Part shown: in pieces, positions 33,467 through 56,655 of the stretch
Numbering within the stretch: the stretch's first letter is position 1
Layout: every line of letters starts with the position of its first letter
Source of the DNA: Thermoplasmata archaeon
GTDB lineage: Archaea > Thermoplasmatota > Thermoplasmata > GCA-020350865
DNA length: 59,600 nt
Reading direction: 5' to 3'
NCBI GenBank assembly: GCA_020348445.1
Contig: CP070751.1
Span: 836,438 to 896,037, forward strand
The notes under the pieces: generated by a model
What the model was told of the DNA's origin: nothing
The model's database searches: none
Seen by the model: only the letters and a program-made list of their open reading frames with translations
Translations under genes and position numbers: made by a program

Positions 33467-36400
33467 TTACTTCAACATTAGAAAGTTGTTTTCATCTATT
33501 TTATGATGAGAATCCCCTCTACCCATTCCAATTTTTTTCCTTTCCATTCTCTTTGATATTATAAACAACGCTATTATCGTGATTATTGGAAACAATCCCT
33601 GTGGATATTCAGGGATGGAAGTATAGGAATAGGTTGGATCGGGATCTCCTGTGTCGTCAGGTGCTCTATCAACTTGTTTGTTCTGTTCATTTCCATTATC
33701 ATGTGTGTCAGCGAACATCTCCGTAGTATTACCCTCCTCAAGAAGATCGTATCCTTGACCAAGAGAATCCTTATCCACCCAAAATAATATTGCATTGTTA
33801 ATACCTTCGCTGTTGTCATCATCAAAGTTGAATCCAAAGCTTGTGCCATCATAAGAATCTATTGTAATGTCAGTATACGACTCCTCGGTGGTCCAAATAG
33901 CAGTATCATCAGGAGGGTTGGTGCTTGTGGTATAGTCAAGAAAGATTTCCCAATATTCCAAAGGCCCTGCTTTATTTCGGTACAATCTTAATCTGTACCA
34001 TATATTATTAGTTGAATTGAAATAGAGATCATAGGCATCCTTGAATTCAACAGTTAAAACTTCGATATCAATACGCATGAACAAATTATCAGAATTGTCG
34101 TATGCAAAGATTTCCAGTATATCATCGTTATCTTCTATTGCATCATTGGTATCTGCACCCAATGATGTCCATGTACCTGGCCATCCCCCACCTGGAGGGG
34201 CTCTGGTGGATCTTCTTGCTCCCCCTATGTTCATGCCATCTAAAATATCTGTATAATCCTTTGTGCTGTTCTCCCAGTTAGACACCATAATATAAGATAC
34301 GAAATTACAGTCTCCCTGGCTTAGCCCGAGTTTATGGTATTCCACTCCAATTTCCAATCGCATGGAATCTATCTTTGCAGAAACACTTTCCTTCTCCTCC
34401 CATAACCAGTCATAAGGACTTACACCTCTCCATTCAAAGTATGAACTAAGTTGTATCCTGTTGTTCTTACCTGTAATTAAAATCATAAAGTCAGCATTTA
34501 TGTTTATCTGGGGTATAGCATATCCTGAACCTGACATTGTGTCTATGAATATGTAAACGTAATCATCGCCGGTTTTTGGTGGAAGTTTAGTTGTGAAAGG
34601 AATTTGATTATCATTATACTCGCCAGTTGTCTCGATTTTTTCTTGCTTTACAACATCGTTTAAATACGGTATCCTGGTGCCCCCTACAATCTCTCCATCG
34701 ACCTTAAGGTAGAAGGATAACACATGTGTTCCACCTGAAACAGCATAATTAATTATGTCTAGATTTTTATCTCCTACATCTCCTATATGATCATCTCTTT
34801 GGCCACCTTCATCCCAATCAGCGAAAGCGCCATCTATTTTCACCTCATCAGGAACATTTAATATGTAACCCACATCGTTGAGCCCAAAAACCGGGCGAAG
34901 TGTCGTAAGCGATATGGTCCCGTAGCTGGTATCTATGTCATGATTGTTTGCTATCTTGAATCCCACTGTATTTTCGATTGCTGATATGCTTCCAACATCG
35001 GCAACAACATTAATCGTAACAATCTCTTTATCTTTAAGAATTAACTCTGGATGGAATGTGATTTCATTCTGGTTTAAGGTTCCGTTTGCGACCATATTGC
35101 TATTCTCGTCCTCAAGCCTTATGTTTGCTAAATCGTTATCATTTCCCAAGCCTGTTCTTTGCACTTTCAGTGCATTGAGAGTAATTGCACTCCCCAATGC
35201 TTTTAATTTTATTCTAAGCAATATATTTCCCCTTCCCGTTACCACATCATTGACCATACCCTGCTGTTCTACAGATAGAATGCCTTTTTCATTGGAAACA
35301 ACATAATCAGAAAAATCCTCAAAGCCGTCCCAACTCTGCGTATGGAATATAACATCAACTTTAATACCATTTTTCAAACCCAAGATGTGAAAAGGTATCT
35401 TTACCTCCAGCTCGGAACCGCTTGCAGCGCAGGAGACTGTCCTTGATGACCTCCATAGGTTCCAGTCCTGTTTGGTTTCAGTATAGGTGTAAAGATAATT
35501 ACTTAAAACCTCACCGCTCCAACCATATATCCTCACCATGAAATCTGCACCAATACCCTCGATAAAATATCCTGTAATTGGATCTTGATCTGAATCAATG
35601 AAAATGTGGATAGTATCAACATGTTTCTCACTGTTGGGAACATCGGGCTCACCCTCCAGCATATTTTTATCAACCCGTACATAAAACGACAGTTCCATAT
35701 TCCTGTCATCAACTCTATAATCGATTATGTCGACATTTGAATTAAAACTCATCTCTTCCTTGGGATCTGATATTGCGGACACTTTATTCCAATCTCCAAA
35801 TCCACCGTCGATCTCAATCCCCCTTGGTTTATTTGTTATATTTGAAAATGCATAAGGAGCAAACATCAGAATGAACAATATTAGGGGTACAACCATCATT
35901 CTCCATATACTACGCCTTGGTTCAGAAATTCTGCTTTTTTTCCCGAGACCATTTGTGATACCATTACCATTAGTAATACCGTTTGTTATACCCACCTTTA
36001 AATCCCTAAGACCGTTAGTCAAACCATTTGTAAGACCGTTGGTAAGACCATCATTTGAACCACTACTTATTTTATTCTTTAATCCATTTGTTACACCATT
36101 TGTCAGGCCAAAATCGGTTCTTTTTACAGCACTAGATAATCCGTTTGTTATTCCACGAGAGCCTATCTTTGGTCCACTTATCAGGCTGTTTGTTATGTCC
36201 CTTGCCAATTCTGGTTTAATTACCACATTCTCTTGGTTTATGGATAGGAGACTTTCTGGAGATTCTACGTTTTGTAAGGGTTTTAGAATAGATTCAGATT
36301 TTTGCATTTCTTTAATAAACTCTGAAAATATCTTTATAGCAGGTGTATCTATTCTTTCTATCTCTTCATCAACATTAGGAGGTGACTGCGGTTTTTCTTT

Positions 36401-36631
36401 CTCCTTTGTGAATTCAGCCTGACATATTTCACATTCTGTGGATCCCTCATCAACAATTGTCCCGCACCTATGACATTCGAATTCCTCGATTACCTCCTCC
36501 TCTTGAAGGTCATCGATCGTTTCTATGGACTCCATAAATTCTACCTTACAATGAGGGCATCGGTTACTATCTTGACCAACTTTGGCCCCACAGATGGGAC
36601 ATTCGAACTCTATATATTCCTTTTCACTCAT
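33467..36631 (-). CDS. Membrane protein: 2 Zn ribbons, GLTN repeats, TM, conserved extracellular core, short cargo, IPEY (PEF-CTERM-like) tail
   Basis: 1054-aa ORF; paralog of 37205-43483 and 43543-56655; tail IPEYPQGLFPIITIIALFIISKRMERKK. Confidence 0.88.
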   Translation of the reverse strand: MSEKEYIEFECPICGAKVGQDSNRCPHCKVEFMESIETIDDLQEEEVIEEFECHRCGTIVDEGSTECEICQAEFTKEKEKPQSPPNVDEEIERIDTPAIKIFSEFIKEMQKSESILKPLQNVESPESLLSINQENVVIKPELARDITNSLISGPKIGSRGITNGLSSAVKRTDFGLTNGVTNGLKNKISSGSNDGLTNGLTNGLTNGLRDLKVGITNGITNGNGITNGLGKKSRISEPRRSIWRMMVVPLILFILMFAPYAFSNITNKPRGIEIDGGFGDWNKVSAISDPKEEMSFNSNVDIIDYRVDDRNMELSFYVRVDKNMLEGEPDVPNSEKHVDTIHIFIDSDQDPITGYFIEGIGADFMVRIYGWSGEVLSNYLYTYTETKQDWNLWRSSRTVSCAASGSELEVKIPFHILGLKNGIKVDVIFHTQSWDGFEDFSDYVVSNEKGILSVEQQGMVNDVVTGRGNILLRIKLKALGSAITLNALKVQRTGLGNDNDLANIRLEDENSNMVANGTLNQNEITFHPELILKDKEIVTINVVADVGSISAIENTVGFKIANNHDIDTSYGTISLTTLRPVFGLNDVGYILNVPDEVKIDGAFADWDEGGQRDDHIGDVGDKNLDIINYAVSGGTHVLSFYLKVDGEIVGGTRIPYLNDVVKQEKIETTGEYNDNQIPFTTKLPPKTGDDYVYIFIDTMSGSGYAIPQININADFMILITGKNNRIQLSSYFEWRGVSPYDWLWEEKESVSAKIDSMRLEIGVEYHKLGLSQGDCNFVSYIMVSNWENSTKDYTDILDGMNIGGARRSTRAPPGGGWPGTWTSLGADTNDAIEDNDDILEIFAYDNSDNLFMRIDIEVLTVEFKDAYDLYFNSTNNIWYRLRLYRNKAGPLEYWEIFLDYTTSTNPPDDTAIWTTEESYTDITIDSYDGTSFGFNFDDDNSEGINNAILFWVDKDSLGQGYDLLEEGNTTEMFADTHDNGNEQNKQVDRAPDDTGDPDPTYSYTSIPEYPQGLFPIITIIALFIISKRMERKKIGMGRGDSHHKIDENNFLMLK
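35945..36154 (-). repeat. (G-L/I/V-T-N)n tetrapeptide repeat block, paralog 1
   Basis: Nine xTNG units with varied synonymous codons. Confidence 0.85.
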
Positions 36632-36770
36632 CTTTTACACCACAAGATGCTCAAGGCATCCGATCTATATCTTTACTAAATGAGATTTAGTGTTTACACT
36701 ATCTAATGACTAAATGTTCTTTTTATGCTGGTGTTTTTGGAAATTCCACGACTTTTTTATCCGAGCCATG

Positions 36771-37208
36771 TTAATTCAATGTCTTTTCGTACGCATATCC
36801 ATTGATTATTTCGTCTATCCTCCTGATAGAATTTTCTATGTCCAACATTGCTACACTGACATATCCTCGTTTTTGAAGCATGACTAAAAGAGTGAGCCGA
36901 TCTCCCAGTTTTTTGACAAGAACCTTGTAACCATTATAATCAAGAATACGATGGGCGAACATCACCTCATGCTGCCTGTTTATCGTATAACCATCTCCAT
37001 CCTCAAGCAATTTCAGTATTTCGGATATATCCTCTTTGTAATTCGTACTGGGGGGTAGATCACAGGCTATAATATCATTCATTCCTTCCACCAGGGCAGC
37101 CCCTTTTATATCGCTGATTTTATTTAAGTCCGAAATCACCTGCTTTAACCTTGAGATTGCCAGATTTTCTTGGAATTCCGATTGCCTCATATCCTTTGGG
37201 AACTTCAT
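36771..37208 (-). CDS. Roadblock/LC7-like protein
   Basis: 145 aa with helix-beta-beta-helix-beta-beta-beta-helix pattern (LNKISDIKGAALV...IIACDLP...LTLLVML). ATGA overlap with the upstream giant gene. Confidence 0.7.
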   Translation of the reverse strand: MKFPKDMRQSEFQENLAISRLKQVISDLNKISDIKGAALVEGMNDIIACDLPPSTNYKEDISEILKLLEDGDGYTINRQHEVMFAHRILDYNGYKVLVKKLGDRLTLLVMLQKRGYVSVAMLDIENSIRRIDEIINGYAYEKTLN

Positions 37209-40200
37209 ATTCTGTCCTCCTTTTTTTCGTTTTTTATATTTTTTCCCCCCAACCTAAGCCCATGTTTTTTCCGGGATTTTTTTCTTGATATTACAAACAG
37301 AGTTATTACTCCGATAATAGGCAAAAACATATCAGAAAATTCAGGAATGATGTATCTAGAATGACAGTATGCTTTTCCTGCATCTACAGACAAAGGAGGC
37401 GTATCATCAGCCTGGGTGTCATAATGGGGTGCACCGCATAAAGTCTCATTGATACCATCACCATTGATATCCCCTGCAAATGAAACTGACCACCCAAAAT
37501 GATCGTACGCGTACTCACCCTCATTCTTGTATTCTTCTGTTGTATCGATATCAGAGCCACCGCAGAAGACATAGAATGCACCACATTCTGTCTTAGAACC
37601 GTTTGTAAAATAGGGTGCGCCCACGATGACATCAGGATCTCCATCACCGTCGATATCACCTGCGTAATGCACAGAGTAGCCGAATTTATCGCCTGCAGTT
37701 TCTCCGTCAAATAACACATCAGGCACTATGTTCATTGGATTTCCACCGTAGTAAATCCAAGCATTACCGTTAGCAGTATCTGGCATACCCACGATTACGT
37801 CATCATAACTTCCGTCTGCATTTATATCGCTTGCATTACCAACACTAAAACCAAAACTCGTGCCTCCAATTCCGATAAGTATTGTATTTGCATTGGTAGC
37901 ACTAATATCATCATCCATTGCATTACTTCCGCAGAAGATATAGGCTCTATCGGTACCTGGTGCACCCACTATTACATCATCGTAACCGGTATTGTTCGTA
38001 TCCCCTGCATTAGAAACCGAGAAGCCAAACTCCTCATTGGAAATCACTCCAGTCAATCTCACATAGTCTAATCCCAGTGGTAAAGAAATAAGTCGTGCGA
38101 ACCTTGACAAACCTCCAGAGTTCATAAAATGATCAACAGTATCGCTTTGTGCACCGGACAAGGTTCGTTTGTCCATTTGAAACGGCATATGAATATCTGT
38201 TGAGTCCCTGTTCTCGATTAATGATTCCTGGCGAGTGGTACTGGAAGTTCGCAGCCTTATCCCATTAACTGCGGTAGCATCATTGGTGAACCATGCAGCA
38301 GTTCCCAGGATAACGAAATCGCCAGACTCCTCTGGAGTATAAGAGTTTGTGACGAGAGTCTCCCATCCACCTGGACCACTATTCCATCCGTCAGCCTCAT
38401 TATAGTGAAATTCAGAGAATGTATCAAGACGTATTGCTGCAATATGGGCATGGTCCATATAAGCACTTACTGTTGGAGTTTCGGAGTCCACAGTAAGTGA
38501 AATTGTATGCGCACTAGTGTCAAGGGTGATGTTCTTAATGACACCGAAATTGAATCTCTCATTAAAGTTATCGTCTGGTTCCATGAGAGTTTCGCCGTAT
38601 AATGTTCCATCGATATGCATTCTACCCCAGACACTATCGCTACTGCTTCCAGATCGCAGATTTGCACTGGCAACAATCAAATAATCTCCAGAAGATGCGG
38701 GTGTGAATGTTGTTTCGGTGACAGTAACTTCAGGACCCGTAGTTACTATTGCATCCTCGATCTCATCATATTGATCTGCAGGGATGCTCATCTCTATTGC
38801 TATAATTCTTGTATTACGAAATCGGCCATTATCTCCTTCAGTCTTGTACTCAAGTTCAATATCATGCGAACCGGCAGCTAGATAAATATATTTCACTGCA
38901 GAGAAATGATACCAATCGTTGATATCCTGGAATTCTCTGTTTGTTTCATGGTATACATTTGTATCATCAACTATCAGGCGCAGCCATGTATTGTCGCCCA
39001 CCTTGTCATCCGGAGCCACATCAGAAGTGGCTATAATCAGATATTTTGTGGCAACAGGAGGATTGACAGTTAAAGTAAGATAATCTATATAAGTAGCGGT
39101 ACTTGCCAGTTCCGATAATGATAGACTTTCTGCATATGAATAGGCATGACCATTCATGTTGAGCCTAGGACCATAGAGTATGTAAGCCCTTCCCTGATCG
39201 ACACCGAGGCTGTATGCACCAACGATAACATCATCATAATTATCACTATTCATATCTCCCGCACCTGAGACTGAACACCCGAACCTATCATAATTATGTT
39301 TTCCAGTTTGATTAATAGTCGAATCTGTATCTGGATCATCAATTGAACTCCAAGACGCCGTGGCCCTTCCGTAAAAAATGTATGCTCTTCCACGATCTGC
39401 ACTATAACCCGGCGCCCCGATAATTATGTCATCATAGGCATCATTGTTCACATTACCTGCATCGCTTACGCTCCACCCGAAAAGATCCCCTGTATTGGTA
39501 CCGTTTATCATGACATCGGCATTTGCGGCAATGATATCATCCAAACCTATACCTGAGTACCCAAAGAAAATATAGGCTGCACCACGCTCTTGGCCCCTTG
39601 TTTCCTTATTTCCATACGTTATGAACTCATCATTCATGGAAAGGTACTGTGCCTTGATCCAGTGCCTGCTTCGTACTACTCTTGAGATGCGGACCTCATC
39701 CAATTTGCCGTTAAAAAACTCACCTGGGGCAGGTCCCGGATCGTATTCCTGAGCCATACTTGCAAGGTCACTATCTACGAGGTTTGGGGTCTCAGGGATG
39801 TTATCCAAATCCAATTCCCCATCTACATATAGAATTGATTTGGAAGCGTCAGCCACTCCGACAATATAATGCCAATTACCGTCAGAGATGGTAACACTAC
39901 CCTGATTGTCCTCTATAGCAGCATGATTTGTTATCATCTCAATCCTCCATATATTACCACCCGCCGAGTTATGAAAACAAACCATTGCAGAATCAGCAGT
40001 ATTATCAGCCTTCATCCAAAAGGCCACTGTAAATATCGAATCGAGATCTGTTGTCACACTGTCCATAGTGATATAATCATTTGTCCCATCAAAATCATCT
40101 GCACCATCACATTTCCCAGTTGTTGCTTCATCACCATTATAATTCTGTGGAGATCCATCATTATTGTAAGATGTGGAATCATATCTTGTGCCTGTTCCTG

Positions 40201-43200
40201 TTTCATTTAAATGCCAAACACCAACGTAATTATCTTCCCACGTACTTGCCTCATCCTGGGCATCAGATGCACCTGAGTTGTTGTAGTACAACCAGATATA
40301 ATCTTCAGATGAGATACCATCGATTTGTGTAACATTAACCCAGATGTAGCTGTTTCCAGCTGTATTCCAATCCTCGAAATGATAATCCAATTCGTTGCTA
40401 CCATCAGCATCAATAAACCGCAGATCACTGCCATCGGACTTTGCATCCGAATAATCAAAATTCGATGAACTCAGGTTCACCATAACCGGGAAATCCAACA
40501 GATTTTCGGTTTGCCCGCTGTTATCAAATGTCAATCTCATACGATTTGACCAAGCATCATTCCACCAGTCTCCTCCTCCAGAGGATGTGTTGAAATAAGG
40601 AGCGCCTACTATGATATCATCATAACCATCATTGTTCACATCCCCAGCATAGGATACATTCCACCCAAACCTGTCTCCCGTATCTGCACTGTTGCCCGAA
40701 ACAAGCTCCACAAGACTCTCACTTCTTGTTCCCCGCATTCCAGTAATTGCTCCTTCCCCATTTGAATAATCAGCGCCCCCCTTCTCCCAGTCAGTTGCTA
40801 AGAAATACACCTTAAACGTATCATTTACCGAATTCACATCTATATCGTCCCAGGTTATACCTACTTCCATCCTCATCATGTCCAGTCCCACATCAACAAA
40901 TCCTGCTTCTGTCCACTCCCCAGGCGACATAATTGTCCCAGACCATTCATAGCATATGCTACTTATTATCCTGTTGTTCCTGCCTTTCACCTCTATCATG
41001 TAATTGGCAGAAATTGGAAGGCCAAGGCCGTAGCCCGAGCCAGATATTGTATCAATGAAGATATAGACCAAGTCCTCTCCAGTCTTAGGAGGAATCAAAG
41101 GTGCTGCTCCACCTACATCCCCAACTCCCCCAATTGAAGGTTCTGGTTTGACTCTATTATTCCAGTAAGGTACTTCCACGCCGCCTGCGATCTCACCATC
41201 CACTTTTAAAAAGAAAGCCGGTCCAGAATTGGTATTTGAAACCCCGTATTTTAAAATGTCTAGATTTGCACGATCTTCGTCACCTTCAGTGTCGTTGTGA
41301 ATGACCTTTTGATTCCAATCTGTAAAAGCACCATCGACTGTTATATTGTCAGGGATACCAAGGATGTAAGTGCACTCATACATCTTACTTTGCGGCTTTA
41401 CCCGTTCTAATGTCACTGTGCCTTTATCGATCAATACATCATGTTTTTTCAGGATTCTGAAGCCAATACTGTTTGCAACAACTGCATCATCACTGATATA
41501 AATAACTAGATATAGTGTTGAACTGTGTCCCTTGGATAATCCAAAATTAAGAAGAAAGCTGGCATTCCCCTCATTTAAGGTACCAAAAGCAATCAAATTA
41601 CCCTCCTCATCCTCGAGTTGTAATGCATCAATATCATAATCTGTTCCCTTCCCTATTCTTTTAATCTTCAGTTCATTTATAACGATATCTGCATTTTTTA
41701 CCTCCAAGTCCAGCCTAAGCAGTCTATTTGCTACATCAACTCTATCTATAACATCTTTTCCCACACCCTGCTGTGTAACAATTAAAACACCTTCTTCGTT
41801 GCAAATTATGGTATCAGAGAAATCGTCGAAATCGTTCCAGCTCTGCATATAGAATAGAACATCAACTTTATCGTATTCCTTCATGTTAAGGGTAGCAAAA
41901 GGAATCTGGGCCTCTAACTCTGAGCCACTTACTTCCACTGTAATGGTATCTACCAGCTCCCAGAGATTCCAATCCTGTTTTACTGCGTCATATCGATAAA
42001 GGGAACTGCCCAGAATCTCACCATTCCATCCATCAATCTCAGCCAAAACGTCCGCACCTATACCCTTGATGTAATACCCTGATTCAGAACTTTGATCAGT
42101 ATCAATGAATATATATGCCGTATCAACATGTTTTTCTCCGCCAGATTCACCTGCCAGCATATACTCTGCAACCTGTAGGTAAAACGACAATTCCATGAGT
42201 CTGGAATCCACACGGTAATCAATTATATCTACATTGGGATTGAATCCTGCTCCTTCGCCCTCATCAGACATAGTATTTACATTGCTCCAGTCCCCAAATT
42301 TACCGTCGATAACTATTCCCTCCTTTTGTTTTGCAATGTTGATGATCAAATAGGGTGATAACACCATCATTATCACAATTAAAGGAACCACTATCAATTT
42401 CCATTTTCCTTTTTTGCCTTCAATCACTCTGTGTCTTGTTCCAAGTCCATTGGTGATTCCATTGCCATTGGTCAGGCCATTTGTAATGCCAACTTTTAAC
42501 GCCTTAAGACCATTTGTAAGGCCGTTTGTCAAACCGCGCCCTTTTTCTCTAAGTCCATTTGTGAGGCCATTTGTTAAACCATTTGTTATGCCCACTGGGG
42601 TTTTAGCTTGTGTTTCATCTTCCTCGGTTTTAAGCGATAGAAGGTCCTCCATGGATTCCAAGGTTAGGTGTTCTTTTTCCATATCTTTTGGTTTTCTCTT
42701 AGGTTTAACGGATAATAATCCCTTCAATTCCTTTGTTGATTCCTCCTCAGATTCCTTCTCTAAAATATCCATCAATACCTTATCAAATTCATCTTCTGAT
42801 TCTTCCTCTATTATGAACTCTGTTCCACATCTTGGGCATTCTGTGGTGGATGATTCCACCTCTAAACCACAAGTCGGGCATTCCAAAAGGTCTTTTGACT
42901 CATCATCTGAGAAAATTGTACCACAATTCGGACACTCAGATGCCGTGCCTTCTACAATGAACTCACATTCAGAACATCTGAATTTTTCTATTTGATCCTC
43001 ACTCCGAAGAACCTCAGGTATCTCATCCAAATCGAAAAATTCCTCACCACAACCAGGACAGGAGGTGGCGTCAACATCAATTTCTATACCACATTCGGGA
43101 CATTTGTATACTTCCTGCTCATCCTTTTCAGCATCCTCCAAAATTCTATCTATTTCCCCGTATAATGATTCGATCTCATCGGCCAGAACCTCACGCTCTA

Positions 43201-46500: not shown

Positions 46501-49500
46501 CTCGTCCATGTGGTAGACACCTACATATCCATTGCTGAAAACGGCTTCGTCATCCTCGGAATTTGTGACATCTGAATTATTATAATACATGTAAATGGTT
46601 GTATCAGTGGAAGATGAGAGGGAAGCCATTTTGACCCAAGCGATCAACTCTCCAGTTGCACTTGTATAACGCTCGATCTCATGGTTGAGTTGGGATTTTC
46701 CGTCCCAATCTGTAAATACGATATCATCCCCATCTGATTGTGCATATGTGACTAGATCAGAATCTGTGGTCTGAATCATCATTGGAAATCCATCGATATC
46801 GCCTGATACCTGTTCATAGTTGATGGTGATCTCTTTTCGATATGTCCAGGCCGAGGTGTTTATATCTTCTCCATTAATCGTGTAAAATGTATCGGGATAA
46901 TACTGGTTGTTGAATTCCGTTTCGATCCATTGTTGCGAACGAGGAACATTGGAGAAGCGAAGTTCATCTAAAAGGCCACCGTAATTCATAGATGGAACAC
47001 CTGATGCTCCAACAAATACATCTGCAGATGAACTCCAGATAGGTCCACTCATGCCCGTATCTTCCAGTATTAAAGACTCATTTATATACAGCAATTGACT
47101 GGAACCATCGTATGTAAAGGAGACATAGGTCCAGTTACTTTTTATTACAGGCTGGGCAGTACTTCCATCGTCATTCACATATATATAAATCCCTTTATTG
47201 GCATCATCGTTAAATGAGAGCTGATATGAATATGTTGTATCTGATTCATTTCTTTTGGACACAATCTTCCCCCAATTTTCTATTGCGGAGTTATCGATAT
47301 ATGCCCAAGTAGAGATGGTAAAATTCTCATTGGTTCCATCAGTAAGACCCAGATCCCCCAAATTGAAATAATCATCGGTTCCACTCCCTGTAAAGTTCTG
47401 GGCGAATCCGATCTTTCCTGTATCCCTTGTGGGTGTGTTTTCCCTTATCCCATCATTTGTATCGGATGCCGAGTTCCCTATGGTTCCCGTATCTTCTACC
47501 AGGTGATATACACCCACATAGCCATTGCTCCATACTCCTTCCTCGTTCTCTTGATTTGTAGCTTCCGAGTTGTTGTAGTACATGTAAAATACAGTATCAA
47601 TTGTTGATGAAATGGAGGGTAATTTCACCCATGCTATCAACTCACCTGTTTCACTGTTATAATACTCTATTTCATGATCAAGTTTAGTTTCATTGTCTGC
47701 AGCCACGAATACAATGTCATCTCCATCCGATTGGGCTTTGTCCATTAAATCCGAATCAGTTGTACTAATTAAAACAGGAAAATCTGTTAAATCGGCTGCG
47801 ACCTTCGATGAATGAATCGTGATCTTCTTGCGACAGTTCCAATCCCCATCCCAAGGTCCTCCTGTAGGATTGAACATTATTTCATTAATAACGATCTGAG
47901 GAATCCTGATATACAGTATGTATGCTTTTCCTGAATCGGTATTTGATCCATCGTCCTTATGGGGAGCCCCTACTAAAACTGCATTGTCACCTGAGTCGTT
48001 AATATCAAGGGCAAAGGAAACAGACCAGCCCATGTGCTCATTGGCTTGGGATCCTTTGAACTCATAGCAGGCCAAAGAGTTCATAGATGAACCGCCCTTA
48101 AACACATAGACGTTTCCTGAATTTGTATATGAACCGTTATCGTAATAGGGTGCTCCCACTATAGCATCGATCTTACCATCACTATCCACATCTCCTGCAA
48201 AATCCACTGAGTAACCGAACCTGTCTCCATTGGATTCGCCTGTGAGATTGACATCTGAGGTGCTGTCCATTGAAGAACCACCGTGGAATATGTATACCTT
48301 TCCAGGAGAATCCTGCTGTTCGTTTCCAAAGGAAATGAAATTATTGGTCATGGATTTGTATTGCGCCGCGATCCAGTCCGCACTTCTTATTTTATTCGAA
48401 GCTGTAACCCCATCTATCACACCATCGAAAGCCTCAGTGTCCCATCCATAACCTATATCAAAGGGAGTTGAAGTATCAGAAAGAAATGCTGCGCTTCCGG
48501 AGGTTGTCTCCCTATTGCCATTTAAATAAATCTCGGGTACGGTTGGATTGCTGGAATTAAAAACAACAGCAACATGATACCAAGTGTTTAAACTGAGTAT
48601 AGTGCTTCCGGTTACAAAACTATTCGTATGATTACCCACATCGATTACAGCTCCACCTTCTGGCCTTATTATTATTCTAAATCCGTAATTTGACCAACTA
48701 AATTTGCTCAAAATTTCATCCCAATCCGCATTTGCATGTCTATAGAACCATGCAGAATATGTATAACTTTTACTTACATCAAAGTATAAACTCGCATCAT
48801 TTCCGCAATCTATATAATCGTCTTGACCATCAGCAGTTCCTGCGAAATCATAGGCACCGTCAACCTGTCCTGTGACATTTTGTATCACATCGCCGTAAAT
48901 TGTACCATCATTATCATACGAAGTCGCATCATAGGGAGTTCCCGATGACTCATTCAAATGCCAAACCCCTGTGTAGTTGATATCATAGGTTCCTGTAATG
49001 TCCTGAGCACTAACGGCATTGGAATTTCCGTAGTACATCCACATGTAATCGGTTGTTGAGCCCCAATCAATTTGGGTAACGTTCACCCACACATAGCTGT
49101 ACGCAGAGGAATTCCATTTTTCTATGTGGTAATTATACTCTGTTGAGCTATCGGGGTCAATGAACCTAAGATCGGTTCCATCAGGCTTTGCTTTTGAATA
49201 ATCAAAATTTGATGCACTTAAATTAACAAGAACCGGGAAATTTAACAAGTCTTCGCTCTGCGCACCATTGTTAAATGTCAACTTTTTCCGGTATTGCCAG
49301 TTGCTGTTCCACCATAGATTATCACCAAATGGAGCTCCCACAATTACATCATCGTATGATCCATCCTGATTAATATCGCTTACATTGGATACGGACCAGC
49401 CAAATGTATCTCCAGTACTTTCACCTGTTAAGGCAATATATGAACCAGAACTCTTTATCCTGTGATATTCGATATTCAAGGTGGAATTTACGGTATCTGA

Positions 49501-52500
49501 GGTTTCGTTCCTACCTATAAATCTAATGCGAACGAACCCATCACTAAGCCTATGATCGCTGTCTAGCGTGTACTCTTTCGTGGTGAACGTAGTGGAGGTT
49601 AGGTCACCCTGAGAACCTAGATCATCCCATGAGGAACCATCGTATACCTGAACACCAAAATCGGTTTCGCTTCCATCCACAGAGTAATTGAGCTGTAATT
49701 TTAAATTTTCTGCAGCGAGAACACTTGATGTGTTGAATTCGATATCAAGCACATATTTTATCTCTACTTCAATCTCACATTCAATACCAGCCGGAGCACC
49801 AGGAGTCCAGCTAAAGCTATCCACATTATTCCCATTTGAAGGATCTACTTTATAAATTGTATCTGCCCCATCGTCGGTTATCCAGAAATACTCTCCGTCC
49901 CAGCCCAGTCCACCTGGGTCCAAGGACTGCGTGTTCACTTCTGTTACGTCCCCGTTTGGTATGGTATTGCCTGAGAGATTTCCGATATCAATAGTATAAA
50001 TCTTATCCTCTGTTGGATCCGTCATTATTAGCCGGCCCGAACCGATATCGTCACGCCAGGTGAGCCCCTCGAGGTATGTTGGTAAATCCGTAGCAAAGTA
50101 TCCTTCATCGCAGTCGATATAATCAACCATGCTAAAATCGCTTGGATCCACTTTGTATATATTATCATCACCAGCATCACCGATCCAGAAATAACCGCCG
50201 CCATATGTGAATCCTCGAGCATCCCCAGAGAAGCTGGATATATCATGGGTGGCTACAAGGGTTCCATTATTTGGGTAATATTGCTCGATATTGTCTGTAC
50301 CATAATCAACACACCAGACATAATCATTGTAAAGAGCCATACCATTTGGATAGGTGGTTCCCGTATTCTCCCAGCTGATATCTACATTTCCACTTTCACT
50401 TCCAGATGCCAAGGAATCTTCTGCATTAACCCTATATATATAGTCCGAGGTTGAATCACAAATCCATAGCCACAAGGTTGTGGCACCCAAATCGTGTTCT
50501 TTCAATATAGCATATGAACCACTGTCTATGGCACTTTTTGCATTGTCAAAATTGGTGATGACACCATAGGTTGTAACATTTGAGGTTACATATGCATAAC
50601 TATCACCATAAAAGTAAATATACACCTTTCCCGCATCAGTTGCCACATCATCATTGAAAGGAGCACCAATTATCACATCATCATAACCGTCATTGTCAAT
50701 ATCACCTGCATCTGAAACAGAAAAGCCGAACTGATCACCGTAATTCTCACCAGTGTAATTCTTGTCAGCATTTGATGCTGAAATGGGTATTGAGCCATCC
50801 CCGTAGAAGATATAGGATTTTCCATATCCTACCTTATCACTGAAACTTTGTTCATTGCTAAATGAAATGAAATCAAAGGTCATGGAAAGATACTGGGCGG
50901 CAATCCAATCAGCACTTCTACCTATGTTTGATATTCTTACCTCGTCGATCCATCCATCCATATCTTCGTAAACTGTACATTCCCCAATCCATAGATTCCC
51001 ACGCGATTGATAGATTGGCCCGGAAAATGATATAGAGGTGCCTAATTCCGCACCGTTTTTGTACAATCTCATATCTGTGCCATCCCATGTCCCTACCATG
51101 TACTGCCATTCATTACTTGTCACGGCATCACTGACATGAAGTTGACCTCCATCTGTGGTTCCATCAGAGCTTAACCACCAGTCCCAGTCATCGGCATCTC
51201 CAGGATCGTCATTGAAGGCAAGGCAGTAGGCTCTATCAGTTTGATATTTCGATACTATGGCACAATCCGATTTCTCATGGTCAACATCGTCGGGTTTGAC
51301 CCAAGCCTCGACGGTTATCTGGGCTGTTATGTTCAAACTGCTGCTTGAAGGGATGTCAACATGATCTGCATTGCCATCGCAATCAACTGCATCATCGATT
51401 ATCCCGGTTTGCCCCTGGGTCAAACCACCTGAACCAGTCCCGTCATTATCATTGGATGTGGAATCAAAAAGCGTCCCCGAGCTCTCGTACAGATGCCACA
51501 CTCCCATGAAGTTCGCATCATAGGTAGCCGCTGCATCTTGAACATCAGAGGCCGCAGTATTGTTGTAATACATCCAGATATAATCTGCTGACGAACTTCC
51601 ATCAACCTGGGGTACCTCCACCCAAACATAGCTGTAACCTGAAGAATCCCAGTCCTCAATATGATAATCCAGTTCTGTGGTTTCATCAGTATCAATAAAC
51701 CGCAGATCAGTTCCATCCGATTTTGCTTTTGAGTAGACAAAGTTGGATGCACTCAGGTTAACAAGGACTGGAAAATTTATAAGGTCCTCTGATTGTCCGG
51801 TGTTATCGAATGTTATTTTTTTGCAGTAATTCCAGTTTGAGTTCCACCATCCATGGGCATTTGGTGCTCCTACTATAATATCATCATAGCTTGAGTTATC
51901 GAAATTTCCAGCACCTGACACCGAACTTCCGAACTTATCATAATCGCTTTCTCCAGTTATCTTTTCATCGGAATCGGTATCGGCGTCATAAACATCACTC
52001 CATAGTCCCGTTGCTTTGCCATAAAATATGTATGCTCTCCCTTTGTAGTTGTCATAACCAGGTGCGCCGATAATGACATCATCATAAATGCCGTTCACAT
52101 CCCCTGCGTCACTTACTGACCACCCAAAAAGATCACCAGCAAAGGAACCGTATATTGTGACATTGGCATTTGAGGCATTGATATCGCCTGAGCTTATACC
52201 TGGATAACCAAAGAATATGTACGCTGCCCCCCCATCTTGACCAACCCCAAGTTTCTGCGCATAGATGTCATCGTCATTAGCACCGTTTCGCTCATCCTCC
52301 CAAACAACAACAGCATAATCATTTGAATCTACAGCCACATCCGGGTATCGTTGGTGAGCACTATCCGAGTTACTGTTAATCTTTTTATCTGAATCACCCC
52401 AGTGATAATCTCCATTTGAATCGAGTTTTTGGGCATAAATGTCGTAGTTGCTCTCACTACGATAATCACGCCATGCTACAATTGCGTACCCACTTAAGTT

Positions 52501-55500
52501 CACAGCTACAGTGGGATAGTCCTGAATAGGAGCTACTCCTCCGTTTCCTGCTTGGTTCACGAGTTTGTCTGAAGAGCCCCACTGGGTATCACCTGTTGTA
52601 TTGAGCTTTTGTGCGTAAATATCATAACTACGGGTCTGATCATACCAGACGATGATGGCATTATCATTTATATCCACGGCTACATCAGTTTCGCTTCCTG
52701 AGCTAGATGAATATTGATTTACTTTCTTATCGGAAGCACCCCATTGAGCAGCTCCAGTAGAGTCAAGTTTTTGTGCGTAGGTAACATATTTCGAACCGGA
52801 GCGATAATCAGACCAAGAAACGATCGCATCTCCATCGGAATCCAAATCTATCGCAGGGTCGATTTGAACCTGTGTTGTATACTGGTTTACTAATTTGTCC
52901 GAACCACCCCATTCTGCGGCCCCAGTAGGATCGAGCTTTTGGGCGTACACATTCCAGCCGCTGCGAGCATCCTTCCAGACGACAGTGACATTCCCTGAGG
53001 AATTCACTGCCACATCAGGTAGATCTTGGGAACTTGATGTATATTGGTTGACCTGCTTATCTGAGGATCCCCACTGCGGGTTACCATCTGAATCGAGCTT
53101 CTGCGCGTAGATATTCCAATTGCTATCGCGATAATCAGCCCAGACTACGATTGCATTGCCTGAAAAGTCCACATCCACTGCAGGATATTTTTGATCCTCA
53201 CTATCTGAATTTTGGTTGACCTTCACATCTGTAGAATTCCATAATGGATCCCCGTCAGAATTAAATTTCTGTGCATATATATTCCAGTCTGTATCACGGT
53301 CATCAGCCCAGACGACAATTGTATTTCCTGATGAATCTGCAGTTACTGCAGGAAATTGTTGGAGATCAGAATCTGAATTCTGGTTGACTTTCTTGTCGCC
53401 AGTTCCCCAAAGACACGCTGAATCAGGATCGTGGTAAGGAGCACCTACGATTATATCAGGATAACCATCATCGTTTACATCACCAGCATAAGACACATTC
53501 CATCCAAATCTATCACTTATTATGTTACCAAATCCACTAACAATTTCTTCAAGACTTTCGGCTCTTGTTCCTGTGGGTTCCATTATCACTCCTTCGCCAT
53601 CCGAATAATCTGAAGCCCTCCTCTCCCAGTCTGTGGCTAAAAAGTACACTTTGAATCCTTCATTTAGTGGGTCGATTTTTACATCATCCCAGTGTATACT
53701 CACCTCCATCTGCATTATGTCCAATCCCACCTCAACCTGATGGCTTACAGTCCATTCCCATTCCCATGACGCAGATCCAGACCATCTATAGAAGGTGCTG
53801 CTCAATATTTTATTATGCCTACCTTTCACCTCTATCATATAATCAGCATCAATTGGAAGGCCCACGCCATATCCTTGTCCAGAGTTCGTATCAATAAAGA
53901 TGTAAACCACGTCTTCTCCTGTCTTGGGTAGGACCTCTGGGATGATACCCTCTCCGCCTGGTTCTCCCCCGATTATTGGCTCAGATTTTGCCTTGTTGTT
54001 CCAGAAAGGCACTTTAATTCCACCACACATCTCACCGTCAACATTCAGATAAAACGCAGGTCCATATTCTGTATTGGATACTCCATATTTTATAATGTCC
54101 AAGTTTACACGATTCACATCTTTTGCTGGATCCTCGTTCAATAATTCATCTTCCCAATCAGAAAATGCTCCGTCGATACTCACATTTTCCGGTACATTTA
54201 GCAAATAACTGTTTTCATAGAAGTTCTCTTCTGGTTTTATACGAGAAATCGATACTGTCCCTTTATCAGTTATCACATCATGATTGTTCTCAATTCTCAA
54301 ACCTATGGTATTTTCTGAATGTGCATCCCCATTGACTGCGATCACAAGATACATAGTGCGAGTTTCATCTTTAGATATTAGTATATCTGGTCTAAAAGTT
54401 ACTCGATCCTCAAAAAAAGAGCCGAACACTAACCTCTCGCCATTTTCGTTTTCAAGCCATACTCCCGAAACATCAAGTTCGGTTCCCACACCTGTTCTCG
54501 TTGCTATAATTTCGTTGATTGTAATATCAGCGTTTTGTGCCCTAACCTCCATTTTAAGCAATCTGTGACTGTTTCCACTTATCTGAGCCTCCCCTGTGCC
54601 CTGTTGTGTTATGGACAGAATGCCATTCTCGTTGCTTATTATTGTATCAGAGAAATCGTCAAATCCGTCCCAGCTCTGCATGTAAAACAGCACATCCACC
54701 TTATCATGTTCATCTATATCCACTGCACTCATTGGTAACTGGGCTTCCAACTCAGACTCGTATACAGCAACAGTAATACTGCCTTTTAATTCCCACAGAT
54801 TCCAATCCTGTTCCAGAGCCGAATAACCATAGAAATTATAGCCTAAAAGCTCTTGGTTCCATCCATATATTTCTGCTAAATAATCTGCGCCAATACCTTG
54901 AATATAATACCCTGTTTCTGGGCTTTGATCTGAATCAATGAAAATATAAGCAGTGTCCACATGTTTTCCATTAAAAGGTTCACCTGCAAGCATCTCTCCT
55001 TCAACTTTTAGGTAGAACGAGAGTTCCATCAACCTCGCATCCACGCGATAATCGACTATATCCACATTGGGATTGAATGGTGCTACTTCTTGGGTGTCTG
55101 TGGATATAACTACTCCCCTCCAATCTTCAAATCTACCGTCGATTGTTATTCCTTTTGGTGGTTTAGCTAGATTCGCGATCAAATAAGGAGACATAACCAA
55201 TATCACAACTATTATTGGAACAACCACAAGTTTCCATCTACCTTTCTTACCCTCAAAAGCACCATGTTTTGCACTTAATCCATTGGTAATACCGTTTCCA
55301 TTGGTTATACCATTGGTGATTCCAGTCCTCAGGGCCCGAAGACCGTTTGTGAGTCCATTGGTAAGACCATTGGTAAGACCGTTGGAAATACCCCTCCTGG
55401 CCCTCTTCAGCCCGTTTGTAAGGCCGTTGGTCAATCCATTTGTCAATCCATTTGTAAGACCGTTTGTCATTCCAAACTTGCGTTTTTTATGTACCTTTAC

Positions 55501-56655
55501 AAATCCATTGGTCATGCTAAAAGAAGTATCGTCAGTTGGGCTTTTTCCCATATCATCTGTATAATCAATGGTAAGACCCTCAGTTGGGCCCTTGGCTTTA
55601 GCTACTTTTGGTACTTTTACTAAATCCACACTCACCTGGTCTTTGACTTCTTCTTTTTCTGATTCCGCGAGCATGCTTAGTATTGAGTCCATGGCTTTAA
55701 TTTGATCCGATTCCTTCTTATGAACCTCAGATTCCTCTCTAGGACCTGGTATACCTTTTACTTTCCTTTCCAATTTATCCTCTGACGCCTCCTCAAGTTC
55801 CTCCTCTAACCCTTTCATCAATATCTCTTCTAATCCCCTTTCCAATTCCTCTTCTAATCCTTCTTCCAATATCCCTTCTAATTCCTTTTCCAATTCCACC
55901 TCTAATCTTTCTTCCAATATCCCTTCTAATCCCTCCTCTATTTCCTCTTCTTCCAATATGAATTCTGTTCCGCATCTTGGACAAGCGTTGGCCGAGGATT
56001 CCACCTCTGCATCGCAGGTTGGACATGCAAATAATTGTTCTACTTCCTCTTCTTCCGAGAATATGGTATGACATAAAGGACACTCAAAAGCTGAACTATC
56101 CACCATGGCTCCGCATTCAGAGCATTCAAATTCTTCTTTTACTTCCTCGTCTAAAATTGTCTCGGGTACCTCCTCCAATAATGATTCGGGTACCTCCTCC
56201 AAGTTCAGAAATTCTACCCCGCATTCGGAGCAGGATTTGGCATCTTGATCCACTGCGACTCCACAATCCGGGCACCTGAAGTCATCCCCTTCCTTCGCTT
56301 TCTTTTCGTCCAAAATTTTATCGATCTCATCAGATAGGTTCTCAAGCTCATCTTCCAATACACCAATTTCCTCCTTGGGCGTCATATCCGAGGAAAACTC
56401 CAAGGCCTCTTCCCAGCCCTTGAATTCCTCGAACTTAAAACCACATTCCCGACATTTAAGCACGTTTTGATAATCCTTTTTGGTTAGAGTTCTGACACGA
56501 TAAGCACAAACAGGACAACTTGCCTTCTCGTTATCCTCAATTATAACCTGAGATTCCCTCAGATATCTATCGCAATTTTCGCATTTGAATTTGGGAATTT
56601 TCACTTTGGTCCCGCACAGGGGGCATCTTTTTTTGTTATCTTTTTCATCAGGCAT
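43543..56655 (-). CDS. Giant membrane protein: 5 Zn ribbons, acidic linker, GLTN repeats, TM, conserved core, 7-bladed FG-GAP propeller with inserts, 5 DUF2341-LamG modules, lamin-tail-like and DNRLRE domains, IPEY-CTERM
   Basis: 4370-aa ORF; motifs read directly; tail IIPEYDFVLIPIVMVPVLFTIFKRNRWKK; AGGTG RBS. Confidence 0.9.
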   Translation of the reverse strand: MPDEKDNKKRCPLCGTKVKIPKFKCENCDRYLRESQVIIEDNEKASCPVCAYRVRTLTKKDYQNVLKCRECGFKFEEFKGWEEALEFSSDMTPKEEIGVLEDELENLSDEIDKILDEKKAKEGDDFRCPDCGVAVDQDAKSCSECGVEFLNLEEVPESLLEEVPETILDEEVKEEFECSECGAMVDSSAFECPLCHTIFSEEEEVEQLFACPTCDAEVESSANACPRCGTEFILEEEEIEEGLEGILEERLEVELEKELEGILEEGLEEELERGLEEILMKGLEEELEEASEDKLERKVKGIPGPREESEVHKKESDQIKAMDSILSMLAESEKEEVKDQVSVDLVKVPKVAKAKGPTEGLTIDYTDDMGKSPTDDTSFSMTNGFVKVHKKRKFGMTNGLTNGLTNGLTNGLTNGLKRARRGISNGLTNGLTNGLTNGLRALRTGITNGITNGNGITNGLSAKHGAFEGKKGRWKLVVVPIIVVILVMSPYLIANLAKPPKGITIDGRFEDWRGVVISTDTQEVAPFNPNVDIVDYRVDARLMELSFYLKVEGEMLAGEPFNGKHVDTAYIFIDSDQSPETGYYIQGIGADYLAEIYGWNQELLGYNFYGYSALEQDWNLWELKGSITVAVYESELEAQLPMSAVDIDEHDKVDVLFYMQSWDGFDDFSDTIISNENGILSITQQGTGEAQISGNSHRLLKMEVRAQNADITINEIIATRTGVGTELDVSGVWLENENGERLVFGSFFEDRVTFRPDILISKDETRTMYLVIAVNGDAHSENTIGLRIENNHDVITDKGTVSISRIKPEENFYENSYLLNVPENVSIDGAFSDWEDELLNEDPAKDVNRVNLDIIKYGVSNTEYGPAFYLNVDGEMCGGIKVPFWNNKAKSEPIIGGEPGGEGIIPEVLPKTGEDVVYIFIDTNSGQGYGVGLPIDADYMIEVKGRHNKILSSTFYRWSGSASWEWEWTVSHQVEVGLDIMQMEVSIHWDDVKIDPLNEGFKVYFLATDWERRASDYSDGEGVIMEPTGTRAESLEEIVSGFGNIISDRFGWNVSYAGDVNDDGYPDIIVGAPYHDPDSACLWGTGDKKVNQNSDSDLQQFPAVTADSSGNTIVVWADDRDTDWNIYAQKFNSDGDPLWNSTDVKVNQNSDSEDQKYPAVDVDFSGNAIVVWADYRDSNWNIYAQKLDSDGNPQWGSSDKQVNQYTSSSQDLPDVAVNSSGNVTVVWKDARSGWNVYAQKLDPTGAAEWGGSDKLVNQYTTQVQIDPAIDLDSDGDAIVSWSDYRSGSKYVTYAQKLDSTGAAQWGASDKKVNQYSSSSGSETDVAVDINDNAIIVWYDQTRSYDIYAQKLNTTGDTQWGSSDKLVNQAGNGGVAPIQDYPTVAVNLSGYAIVAWRDYRSESNYDIYAQKLDSNGDYHWGDSDKKINSNSDSAHQRYPDVAVDSNDYAVVVWEDERNGANDDDIYAQKLGVGQDGGAAYIFFGYPGISSGDINASNANVTIYGSFAGDLFGWSVSDAGDVNGIYDDVIIGAPGYDNYKGRAYIFYGKATGLWSDVYDADTDSDEKITGESDYDKFGSSVSGAGNFDNSSYDDIIVGAPNAHGWWNSNWNYCKKITFDNTGQSEDLINFPVLVNLSASNFVYSKAKSDGTDLRFIDTDETTELDYHIEDWDSSGYSYVWVEVPQVDGSSSADYIWMYYNNTAASDVQDAAATYDANFMGVWHLYESSGTLFDSTSNDNDGTGSGGLTQGQTGIIDDAVDCDGNADHVDIPSSSSLNITAQITVEAWVKPDDVDHEKSDCAIVSKYQTDRAYCLAFNDDPGDADDWDWWLSSDGTTDGGQLHVSDAVTSNEWQYMVGTWDGTDMRLYKNGAELGTSISFSGPIYQSRGNLWIGECTVYEDMDGWIDEVRISNIGRSADWIAAQYLSMTFDFISFSNEQSFSDKVGYGKSYIFYGDGSIPISASNADKNYTGENYGDQFGFSVSDAGDIDNDGYDDVIIGAPFNDDVATDAGKVYIYFYGDSYAYVTSNVTTYGVITNFDNAKSAIDSGSYAILKEHDLGATTLWLWICDSTSDYIYRVNAEDSLASGSESGNVDISWENTGTTYPNGMALYNDYVWCVDYGTDNIEQYYPNNGTLVATHDISSFSGDARGFTYGGGYFWIGDAGDDNIYKVDPSDFSMVDYIDCDEGYFATDLPTYLEGLTWRDDIGSGRLIMTDPTEDKIYTIDIGNLSGNTIPNGDVTEVNTQSLDPGGLGWDGEYFWITDDGADTIYKVDPSNGNNVDSFSWTPGAPAGIECEIEVEIKYVLDIEFNTSSVLAAENLKLQLNYSVDGSETDFGVQVYDGSSWDDLGSQGDLTSTTFTTKEYTLDSDHRLSDGFVRIRFIGRNETSDTVNSTLNIEYHRIKSSGSYIALTGESTGDTFGWSVSNVSDINQDGSYDDVIVGAPFGDNLWWNSNWQYRKKLTFNNGAQSEDLLNFPVLVNLSASNFDYSKAKPDGTDLRFIDPDSSTEYNYHIEKWNSSAYSYVWVNVTQIDWGSTTDYMWMYYGNSNAVSAQDITGTYDINYTGVWHLNESSGTPYDATSYDNDGTIYGDVIQNVTGQVDGAYDFAGTADGQDDYIDCGNDASLYFDVSKSYTYSAWFYRHANADWDEILSKFSWSNYGFRIIIRPEGGAVIDVGNHTNSFVTGSTILSLNTWYHVAVVFNSSNPTVPEIYLNGNRETTSGSAAFLSDTSTPFDIGYGWDTEAFDGVIDGVTASNKIRSADWIAAQYKSMTNNFISFGNEQQDSPGKVYIFHGGSSMDSTSDVNLTGESNGDRFGYSVDFAGDVDSDGKIDAIVGAPYYDNGSYTNSGNVYVFKGGSSMNSLACYEFKGSQANEHMGWSVSFALDINDSGDNAVLVGAPHKDDGSNTDSGKAYILYIRIPQIVINEIMFNPTGGPWDGDWNCRKKITIHSSKVAADLTDFPVLISTTDSDLMDKAQSDGDDIVFVAADNETKLDHEIEYYNSETGELIAWVKLPSISSTIDTVFYMYYNNSEATNQENEEGVWSNGYVGVYHLVEDTGTIGNSASDTNDGIRENTPTRDTGKIGFAQNFTGSGTDDYFNLGDLGLTDGTNENFTISTWAYIDNSAIENWGKIVSKRNESDTTYSYQLSFNDDANKGIYIYVNDDGSTAQPVIKSNWTYVSFTYDGSSQLLYINESLILEDTGMSGPIWSSSADVFVGASGVPSMNYGGLLDELRFSNVPRSQQWIETEFNNQYYPDTFYTINGEDINTSAWTYRKEITINYEQVSGDIDGFPMMIQTTDSDLVTYAQSDGDDIVFTDWDGKSQLNHEIERYTSATGELIAWVKMASLSSSTDTTIYMYYNNSDVTNSEDDEAVFSNGYVGVYHMDEESGSISNSASSTNDGTRQDSPTRTTGWIGYGQDFSGSAGDDRFNLGDMGLTLGVLENLTLSFWLNINDPLLDTWGRVILKRDESDSNTLWGAYFDDDVTDKDLFFNAGEDGGAYEIGKSIWVYVSYTYDGTIKRHYQNGSQVRDDTGGGGPISTTISSAAVTIGGRIAGGQHYAGILDEVRISKVTHSADWILTEFNNQYYPGSFYTFNDEDITPSDWDYRKPITINSSKVTGDLFAFPVLVDITDSDLANDARADGYDIIFTDSEGESKLCHEIELFNSSSGELVAWVKVPRLFSSSDTMIYMYYGNTSQSSPTENPDGVWYPNYVGVWHLNQSGDGTADEFEDSSQFDNHGQGGSGTSSYVPTRIEGKIGYGQDFDGENDYIDCGYDASLDIGGKQITLEAWINFEGYDSDHYTGIMSHSGWAEGYRMVIKDTGNPLYFHLPEDSYSVASDNDLPTDSWVHVVAVYNGSKMFVYVNGIKSSNEVDKTDNIETCADEFWIGHGDNDVGVAWSYPWNGSIDEVRVSNYTRSADWIVTEYNNQNDTASFIYTGSEETPPSSSTTDSSSYNEWVELYNSGNTPVDLTGWYLTDNDGYKFDISGAGSIPPGGYLVCHLGQGGINSSTDVYGYIDYESEFVVQPDATAGKDVYLDSSLGIANTGTWVQMTVTNASSLYVRPLVQFDLSSLPPGIVKDAKVWLYRYDGHATTGATVNLHRVTQSWIEGTGQVNSGANWGTYDGTNSWAASGGDYDSSSEDTKTIAAGTDAWYYWNVTDLIRDWESGTYSNYGMIFEADDGSENQIFVSSDNSDSSKHPKLIVNMSTTAPMLENSDDLALMDSNSIIIDYVAWGETSGSDDDDAASWSQWTDGDYVDTSDLLENQTIGRDKDSNDTNLPVNWEDGAGKADPFGIDRSTENGSTPNAQNVDFIIPEYDFVLIPIVMVPVLFTIFKRNRWKKFISARNSSKIRAHCVRRRIILIFQIYKNRLK
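55276..55473 (-). repeat. (G-L/I/M-T-N)n tetrapeptide repeat block, paralog 3
   Basis: Eleven xTNG units plus one ISNG in this block; one more MTNG about 40 nt upstream in the gene. Confidence 0.85.

Follow-up and report, generated by a model that had tools for sequence, protein, structure and literature searches.

The window considered here, the whole analysed stretch of 59,600 nucleotides (positions 836,438 to 896,037 of contig CP070751.1 of a Thermoplasmata archaeon), carries three giant genes on its minus strand, P0001, P0002 and P0003, whose products share an array of four-residue units of the form x-T-N-G shortly ahead of a transmembrane (TM) helix. The source genome is a single contig of 5.16 Mb with 41.5% GC. 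We find that this tract belongs to a large family of giant Thermoplasmata surface proteins, not described before, in which it forms the juxtamembrane module on the cytoplasmic side, and we consider what a strictly conserved repeat of this kind might do beneath the membrane. The features, all in window positions, are as follows.

33467..36631, minus strand: gene P0001, 1054 aa, with two Zn-ribbons, xTNG array, TM helix, CBM9-like ectodomains and PEF-like C-terminal anchor
35948..36151, minus strand: xTNG array of P0001, 9 units, aa 161-228, units located in the translation
35945-35992, minus strand: terminal motif of the P0001 array, GITNGITNGNGITNGL
35837..35899, minus strand: TM helix of P0001, aa 245-265, 15 residues past the terminal motif
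37205..43483, minus strand: gene P0002, 2092 aa
42446..42589, minus strand: xTNG array of P0002, 8 units, aa 299-346, AlphaFold2 (AF2) predicted local distance difference test (pLDDT) 33-44
42443-42490, minus strand: terminal motif of the P0002 array
42335..42397, minus strand: TM helix of P0002, aa 363-383, also helical in the AF2 model (residues 78-100 of the model)
41717..42316, minus strand: first ectodomain of P0002, IDGxFxDW beta-sandwich, CBM9/DOMON-like, AF2 pLDDT 84-96
43543..56655, minus strand: gene P0003, 4370 aa
55279..55515, minus strand: xTNG array of P0003, 12 [LIVM]TNG units and one ISNG, aa 381-459
55276-55323, minus strand: terminal motif of the P0003 array
55168..55230, minus strand: TM helix of P0003, aa 476-496

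All three proteins follow one order: CxxC...CxxC zinc ribbons (Pfam DZR/Zn_ribbon), an acidic linker, the x-T-N-G tract and one TM helix, with the IDGxFxDW domain directly past the helix and FG-GAP, DUF2341/LamG and LTD modules beyond it. P0002 has five Zn-ribbon pairs on the N-terminal side and, past its CBM9-like domain, DUF2341/LamG and FG-GAP modules; in P0003 the linker is an acidic repeat, and the CBM9-like domain is followed by five DUF2341/LamG modules, FG-GAP and LTD. The best Foldseek matches of the first ectodomain of P0002, all weak, are carbohydrate-binding, DOMON and CBM9 folds (4jpq, 2ivf_C, 1i82, 7nwn). The C-terminus of each protein consists of IPE[YF] followed by a hydrophobic helix and then basic residues, and resembles that of PEF-CTERM proteins, the substrates of archaeosortase C; the PEF-CTERM profile TIGR03024, however, scores 15.8 bits on P0002 against a curated cut-off of 23, and the likeness concerns the end of the protein opposite to the xTNG array. 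The Glu/Leu-rich acidic repeat in the P0003 linker (55788-55951, minus strand) has a 48-nt period in 2.8 copies, with 12- and 24-nt periods as well, and lies a short way upstream of the xTNG array, giving an acidic block followed by a basic block.

A preliminary description of this DNA, made from the letters alone, had counted 9, 8 and 12 units in the three proteins, and the translated open reading frames (ORFs) bear these counts and the stated positions out (13 units in P0003 if ISNG is included), as they do the spacers KRARRG, RALRTG, REKGRG, KALKVG and RDLKVG and the common ending GITNG(I/L)TNGNGITNGL in all three tracts. The juxtamembrane position stands too, but the gap to the TM helix, given there as 10-13 residues, measures exactly 15 in each protein and holds 5-6 Lys/Arg and one Asp/Glu. 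The codon variation between units is real: LTNG occurs 16 times in 15 DNA versions, and ITNG ten times in ten. Tandem Repeats Finder reports only weak 12-nt arrays with 74-86% matching. When 18 paralogs of the genome are compared, their terminal motif of 23 residues shows 78% protein identity, and the third-codon positions at its identical residues agree in only 40% of cases. Since codons and synonymous sites are scrambled alike, selection acts on the peptide, as had been proposed from the units of the three genes; recent DNA slippage or gene conversion is ruled out by the same codon data. The paralogs are old, their peptide is constrained, and purifying selection maintains the tract. A rough, uncomputed estimate from typical residue frequencies gives, for a protein this long, a chance expectation far below one [LIVMF]TNG; the observed density is 8-13 units inside 50-85 residues.

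Pooled over the family (11,275 array residues), the composition is 26.4% Gly, 16.5% Asn, 15.0% Thr, 14.8% Leu, 11.4% Arg and 4.0% Val, with only 1.1% Asp plus Glu; Arg and Lys together make up about 13%, and the net charge is about +0.12 per residue. The residue preceding Asn-Gly is Thr in 1525 cases, Val in 223, Ile in 25 and Ser in 11, so that beta-branched residues occupy 96% of this position and Ser is nearly excluded, while the residue past Gly is Leu in 1364 cases and the x position is mostly Leu (about 850) or Arg (about 620). This makes x-[T/V]-N-G-L the true core unit. That beta-branched residues are preferred to Ser speaks against a function of the hydroxyl group, such as phosphorylation or helix capping. 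T-N-G-L does fit the pT-x-x-L pattern of FHA docking, but we rejected such docking, as the FHA domain (PF00498) has no match in the single-contig genome, while the control matched in 6 reference genomes, and there are only 3 Pkinase matches. Unit starts are most often spaced by 4 (751 cases), 6 (352), 7 (257) or 11 residues (80), with other values including 10, 15 and 16. Members from the source genus carry blocks of 1-5 units separated by spacers rich in basic residues, other lineages show mainly a 10- or 11-residue period, GRTNGLTNGL(R), and runs of G-x-T-N-G reach 5-6 units.

How widely is this arrangement distributed? The three paralogs recognised at the outset are genuine but understate the case, since a six-frame scan finds the tract, TM helix and IDGxFxDW module together in about 18 ORFs of the genome, with 3 to 32 units each. 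A protein search with a query that included the array returned 270 homologs, all of them from metagenome-assembled genomes (MAGs) labelled Thermoplasmata, Methanomassiliicoccales or similar. Because the array was part of that query, an exhaustive HMMER search was run with the ectodomain alone, and it yielded 774 representatives, 103 of them with enough upstream sequence. A TM helix is found in 100 of these 103, and a TM helix together with at least three units in 86; the absence of the repeat from most close homologs, which the preliminary description had named as a finding that would count against its own proposal, is not what we observe. The remaining representatives have a degenerate six-residue variant or a Zn-ribbon placed directly at the TM helix. 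In the latter, array-less subfamily (P0160, P0213, P0223, P0236, P0244, P0246), the Zn-ribbon lies about 25-35 residues before the helix. The succession of TM helix and IDGxFxDW beta-sandwich holds in an alignment of 17 paralogs of the source genome, in the AF2 model, in the 270 homologs and in the 774 representatives. The array is followed by a TM helix in 119 of 121 homologs, among which the median is 15 units, and the gap, by a window-based measure, is mostly 16 (61 cases) or 24 residues (27 cases).

Of 201 genomes sampled from the class, 100 have the module of repeat, TM helix and ectodomain, and it is found in 22 of 30 families. A GTDB-wide search at the DNA level for the pattern TNG-x-TNG-x-TNG matched at least 112 stretches; among the matches listed, about 60 of 80 records are by their titles Thermoplasmata-type MAGs, at least 70 ORFs combine at least four units with a TM helix and the ectodomain anchor, and bacterial loci mostly have the minimal three units and no TM helix. 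A few matches are unrelated tracts, for example a C-terminal [H/L]TNG/NG tract in a 1209-aa ORF of Mycobacterium attenuatum (L070), and a run of seven VTNG units and a PTNS ahead of a hydrophobic region in an ORF of Methanosarcina sp. T3 (L101).

The cytoplasmic heads of the family vary between Zn-ribbon, TPR, KaiC-like ATPase with DUF7504, winged helix-turn-helix (wHTH) and none at all, and the outer parts between FG-GAP, LamG, S8 peptidase and LTD. Because the heads are cytoplasmic families, and the tails consist of FG-GAP, LamG, S8 peptidase and LTD modules with a PEF-like anchor, the array is always on the cytoplasmic side, and the proteins are single-pass with the N-terminus inside. Array, TM helix and first CBM9-like ectodomain are passed on together, and around this core both protein ends are shuffled; the last three units of the array stand at a fixed distance before the helix, and T-N-G-L is near-invariant across lineages whose ectodomains are only about 30% identical. 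Among 52 family genes with complete 5' ends, 15 have no more than 48 residues ahead of their first unit and still keep 6-19 units. Directly upstream of these headless members we found no head-type gene. In several MAGs a conserved same-strand ORF of about 180 aa, with the C-terminal motif ...HGLFS.QVSSATNLS..YDIGDVIELETT..., lies upstream of headless genes (loci L036, L054, L063, L065, L100, L102, L113, L133 and L138). Unit number is unrelated to how long the ectodomain is (rho -0.03) and correlates weakly with the length of the head (rho 0.30, from data points that are not independent). A comparison of unit number between orthologs was dropped: there are no clean orthologs, identity to the best matches in the genus being only 52-61%.

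Is the terminal motif uniform within a cell? In the source genome nearly all paralogs share one terminal variant, including the divergent trio L010-L012, whose shared variant could be an ancestral retention or the outcome of homogenisation. In other genomes the paralogs of one cell differ (T-type, V-type, and N/S/T/L/V/M inserts), and the variants follow the ectodomain tree, requiring 16 changes against 30 for shuffled labels (none of 200 shuffles was as low). Homogenisation within those genomes was rejected, since the variants follow the ectodomain clades. This pattern weakens the idea of a zipper templated across all paralogs of a cell and, equally, that of a genome-specific co-evolving partner.

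Structure prediction gives a divided answer. For residues ~283-593 of P0002, modelled with the 17-paralog alignment, AF2 renders the TM helix and the beta-sandwich well (sandwich pLDDT 84-96) and leaves the xTNG array at pLDDT 33-44 without strands. The 32-unit array of another paralog, modelled from its single sequence, comes out as one 200-residue helix (residues 31-230) at pLDDT 85-92 with a predicted template modelling score (pTM) of 0.24. Neither monomer run contains beta structure in the array. On propensity scales, three of the four residues in the repeat rank low as helix formers; for this reason, and because the two runs disagree, the single-sequence helix is at most a hint of conditional folding. 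In the source genus the hydrophobic moment (muH) peaks at 94-98 degrees with values of 0.35-0.44. A conserved amphipathic helix was nevertheless rejected on the family-wide periodicity near 72 degrees. A sequence search of the PDB returned compositional matches only, the best being a Gly-rich stretch of VPS13A (E 7e-4), which we take to be part of an amphipathic, membrane-binding C-terminal region. No repeat, solenoid or amyloid-motif family in Pfam matches the tract, the ESM Atlas search gave no usable match, and literature searches on the motif and on the architecture returned nothing relevant.

What could be the role of such a tract? We favour the interpretation, with a probability of roughly 0.4, that it is a non-globular or conditionally folding, membrane-hugging strip for multivalent interactions. 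On its own the tract would be a non-globular chain of Asn-Gly turns, folding perhaps only on a surface or a partner. It would lie along the anionic inner face of the membrane and offer many low-affinity contacts to lipid head groups, to a shared cytoplasmic partner, or to both; candidate partners are the KaiC-like ATPases, which are fused to many members or encoded beside them. In this way the strip would position or gather the variable cytoplasmic heads beneath the membrane. We infer that the tract is neither a preformed beta-solenoid nor merely a passive linker: headless members keep the array, which argues for more than a linker, and the low pLDDT of the array in a model that captures its neighbours well argues for its non-globular character. 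Conditional folding is possible in view of the single-sequence helix, the hydrophobic moment in the genus and the compositional match to VPS13A.

Several observations weigh against this interpretation. No partner was found: the small ORF P0126, lying between two giant genes, is a singleton in the genome, and DUF7504 is matched there only 3 times. The near-invariant T-N-G is left unexplained by membrane binding alone. The two AF2 runs disagree on the array, the hydrophobic periodicity peaks across the family near 72 rather than 100 degrees (muH at 100 degrees is 0.27, against 0.22 for shuffles), and charge-hydropathy values fall on the boundary between order and disorder. Finally, some 10-15% of family clusters, including proteins of 5000-6700 aa, have no array and carry a Zn-ribbon at the TM helix, so the module is dispensable.

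Among described systems, polybasic or amphipathic membrane-binding segments, such as the MARCKS effector domain, the juxtamembrane regions of receptors and the Gly-rich C-terminal helices of VPS13/ATG2, likewise place a cationic and hydrophobic strip at the inner leaflet. They conserve composition and do not have a strict T-N-G core. Across the xTNG family the periodicity is not helical. In form alone the array recalls the NANP repeat of the Plasmodium circumsporozoite protein, a non-globular four-residue repeat of variable copy number with invariant Asn and a turn former; that repeat, however, is extracellular, eukaryotic, proline-based and not cationic.

A bolder extension would be that binding of a ligand to the ectodomains makes the arrays self-associate or recruit KaiC-like ATPases, clustering the roughly 20 paralogous giant receptors under the membrane. 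We hold this to be unlikely as matters stand; if true, it would constitute a new form of archaeal transmembrane signalling by clustering, through a type of repeat without a described counterpart.

The nearest described sequence feature is the GxxxG repeat of FliH/YscL, which differs in composition and context. In these proteins, too, Gly recurs at every fourth residue in long runs, and the repeat lies in a segment linking a RecA-type ATPase to a membrane machine. By analogy, the xTNG array could form an alpha-helical stalk between the membrane and a RecA-type (KaiC-like) ATPase head, its long helices packing closely as dimers or hexamers through the Gly at every fourth position. Formally the array does follow G-x3-G, in up to 5-6 consecutive units; the single-sequence model of the 32-unit array shows one helix over residues 31-230 at pLDDT 85-92, and KaiC heads occur on many members. 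Yet the same helix has a pTM of only 0.24, the aligned model leaves the array at low confidence, the poor helix-forming propensity of the repeat residues is unfavourable, NG, LG and R inserts interrupt any single Gly stripe, and headless and Zn-ribbon-only members keep the array too. The FliH/YscL repeats, which vary as widely in number between homologs, have abundant Glu, Gln, Lys and Ala at their repeat positions and a predicted helical structure (Trost & Moore 2009, PMC2674601). The corresponding xTNG positions are Leu or Arg, Thr or Val, and Asn, with almost no acidic residues and with basic spacers breaking the runs; the array thus lacks the positions rich in helix formers, and its helix prediction is inconsistent. 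Its place is immediately ahead of the TM helix of archaeal surface proteins, and it shows neither sequence homology to FliH/YscL nor a Pfam match. We consider the stalk a doubtful explanation.

The preliminary description had suggested a different kind of association, a beta-solenoid or cross-beta zipper that clusters the paralogs under the membrane. In such a zipper the L/N and T/G faces of extended x-T-N-G strands would stack into Asn ladders and oligomerise the receptors. Strand-turn units would suit the preference for Thr, Val or Ile before Asn-Gly and the near exclusion of Ser, as well as the invariance of Asn and Gly, and a motif common to 18 paralogs of the source genome is what a shared zipper might display. 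The proposal is not supported by the remaining data. Neither AF2 run shows strands; the spacings are irregular (4, 6, 7, 10, 11, 15, 16) and the units come in blocks of 1-5; no amyloid or solenoid family in Pfam matches; and the paralogs of other genomes carry differing variants along their ectodomain clades, as described above. The net charge of about +0.12 per residue, at 26% Gly, also counts against stacking, a strongly cationic tract being expected to disfavour an in-register arrangement. The tract has neither the regular coil length nor the profile match that mark beta-solenoid families such as the pentapeptide, hexapeptide and RTX repeats. Amyloid signalling motifs (HET-s/PP/sigma, RHIM, BASS) are comparable as short motifs rich in Gly, Asn and hydrophobic residues shared within one cell. 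Those motifs, however, are terminal, number one or two, span some 20-40 aa and belong to NLR/effector gene pairs, whereas the xTNG arrays are internal, lie at a TM helix, run to 3-32 units, are cationic and have no predicted beta structure. A search for NACHT/NB-ARC or HET-s-type Pfam matches found none, and no NLR is present. Zipper formation, perhaps through a beta form that depends on oligomerisation, thus appears improbable to us.

Could the tract be no more than a passive, flexible tether or a neutral low-complexity expansion that spaces the head from the membrane? Wide variation in copy number, low predicted confidence and the weak correlation between unit number and head length would all be expected of such a spacer. 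This explanation is hard to reconcile with a T-N-G-L core kept near-invariant where the ectodomains have diverged to about 30% identity, with the scrambled synonymous sites and with the fixed distance to the TM helix, and 15 of the 52 members retain the array with no head to tether; we accordingly give it little credence. Equally little is to be given to the notion that the array is an extended topogenic or targeting n-region of a signal anchor, of the ESPR or YSIRK kind, which would secure the N-in topology or pace the export of the giant ectodomain. Wherever it occurs, the array does directly precede the sole TM helix of the N-terminal part; it is a cationic tract nearly free of acidic residues, and headless forms keep it. 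Up to 32 units, however, would go far beyond the needs of topology, and pacing of export was rejected, as unit number is unrelated to ectodomain length (rho -0.03) and array-less members reach 5000-6700 aa. Very improbable is a chemical timer, in which Asn-Gly, the dipeptide most prone to deamidation, would convert to isoaspartate and mark the age of the protein: the genome has one clear PIMT repair enzyme, but PIMT was matched in all 14 control genomes, which makes its presence uninformative, and the Thr/Val and Leu preferences would go unexplained.

The giant-gene cluster has one Zn-ribbon/coiled-coil/KaiC-like gene and three wHTH genes adjoining it. The first (27110-29632, minus strand) encodes a protein of 840 aa: a Zn-ribbon at the N-terminus, some 450 aa that are rich in Lys and Glu and coiled-coil-like, and at the C-terminus a KaiC-like ATPase (PF06745, DUF7504, DUF7090). 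The composition of this protein accounts for a strong GC/AT skew at 28-30 kb. The three small winged-helix genes (HTH_20/MarR-like; 31180-31602, 32423-32806 and 33030-33377, plus strand) lie directly downstream of the cluster. P0126 (145 aa, 36771-37208, minus strand) looks Roadblock/LC7-like by eye only and has no Pfam match. Both P0126 and DUF7504 were rejected as local partners, the former as a singleton without a Pfam match, the latter for its mere 3 matches in the genome. A fourth giant paralog begins outside the window and has its C-terminal 945 aa within it (56763-59600, minus strand), comprising a part that is LamG-like by similarity to P0003, a DNRLRE domain and an IPEF-plus-helix tail; its 5' part falls where the genome sequence reads N. 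Farther off, a 3138-aa protein (15149-24565, plus strand) combines a disaggregatase repeat, Big_9 and cadherin-like domains and a C-terminal DUF835, and has no xTNG array.

The module described here is the hallmark of giant surface proteins that form a very large and so far unstudied family. It was found in about half of the sampled Thermoplasmata genomes, in up to some 20 copies per genome, and the proteins link ectodomains of an adhesin- or lectin-like kind to heads in the cytoplasm (Zn-ribbon, TPR, KaiC or HTH). The four-residue motif of the module is strictly conserved, recurs 3-32 times and keeps a constant register relative to the membrane; no function has been described for it, and it provides a simple sequence tag by which the family can be found in metagenomes. 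Knowing whether the motif binds lipid, a partner or itself would reveal how these archaea couple their surface to their cytoplasm.

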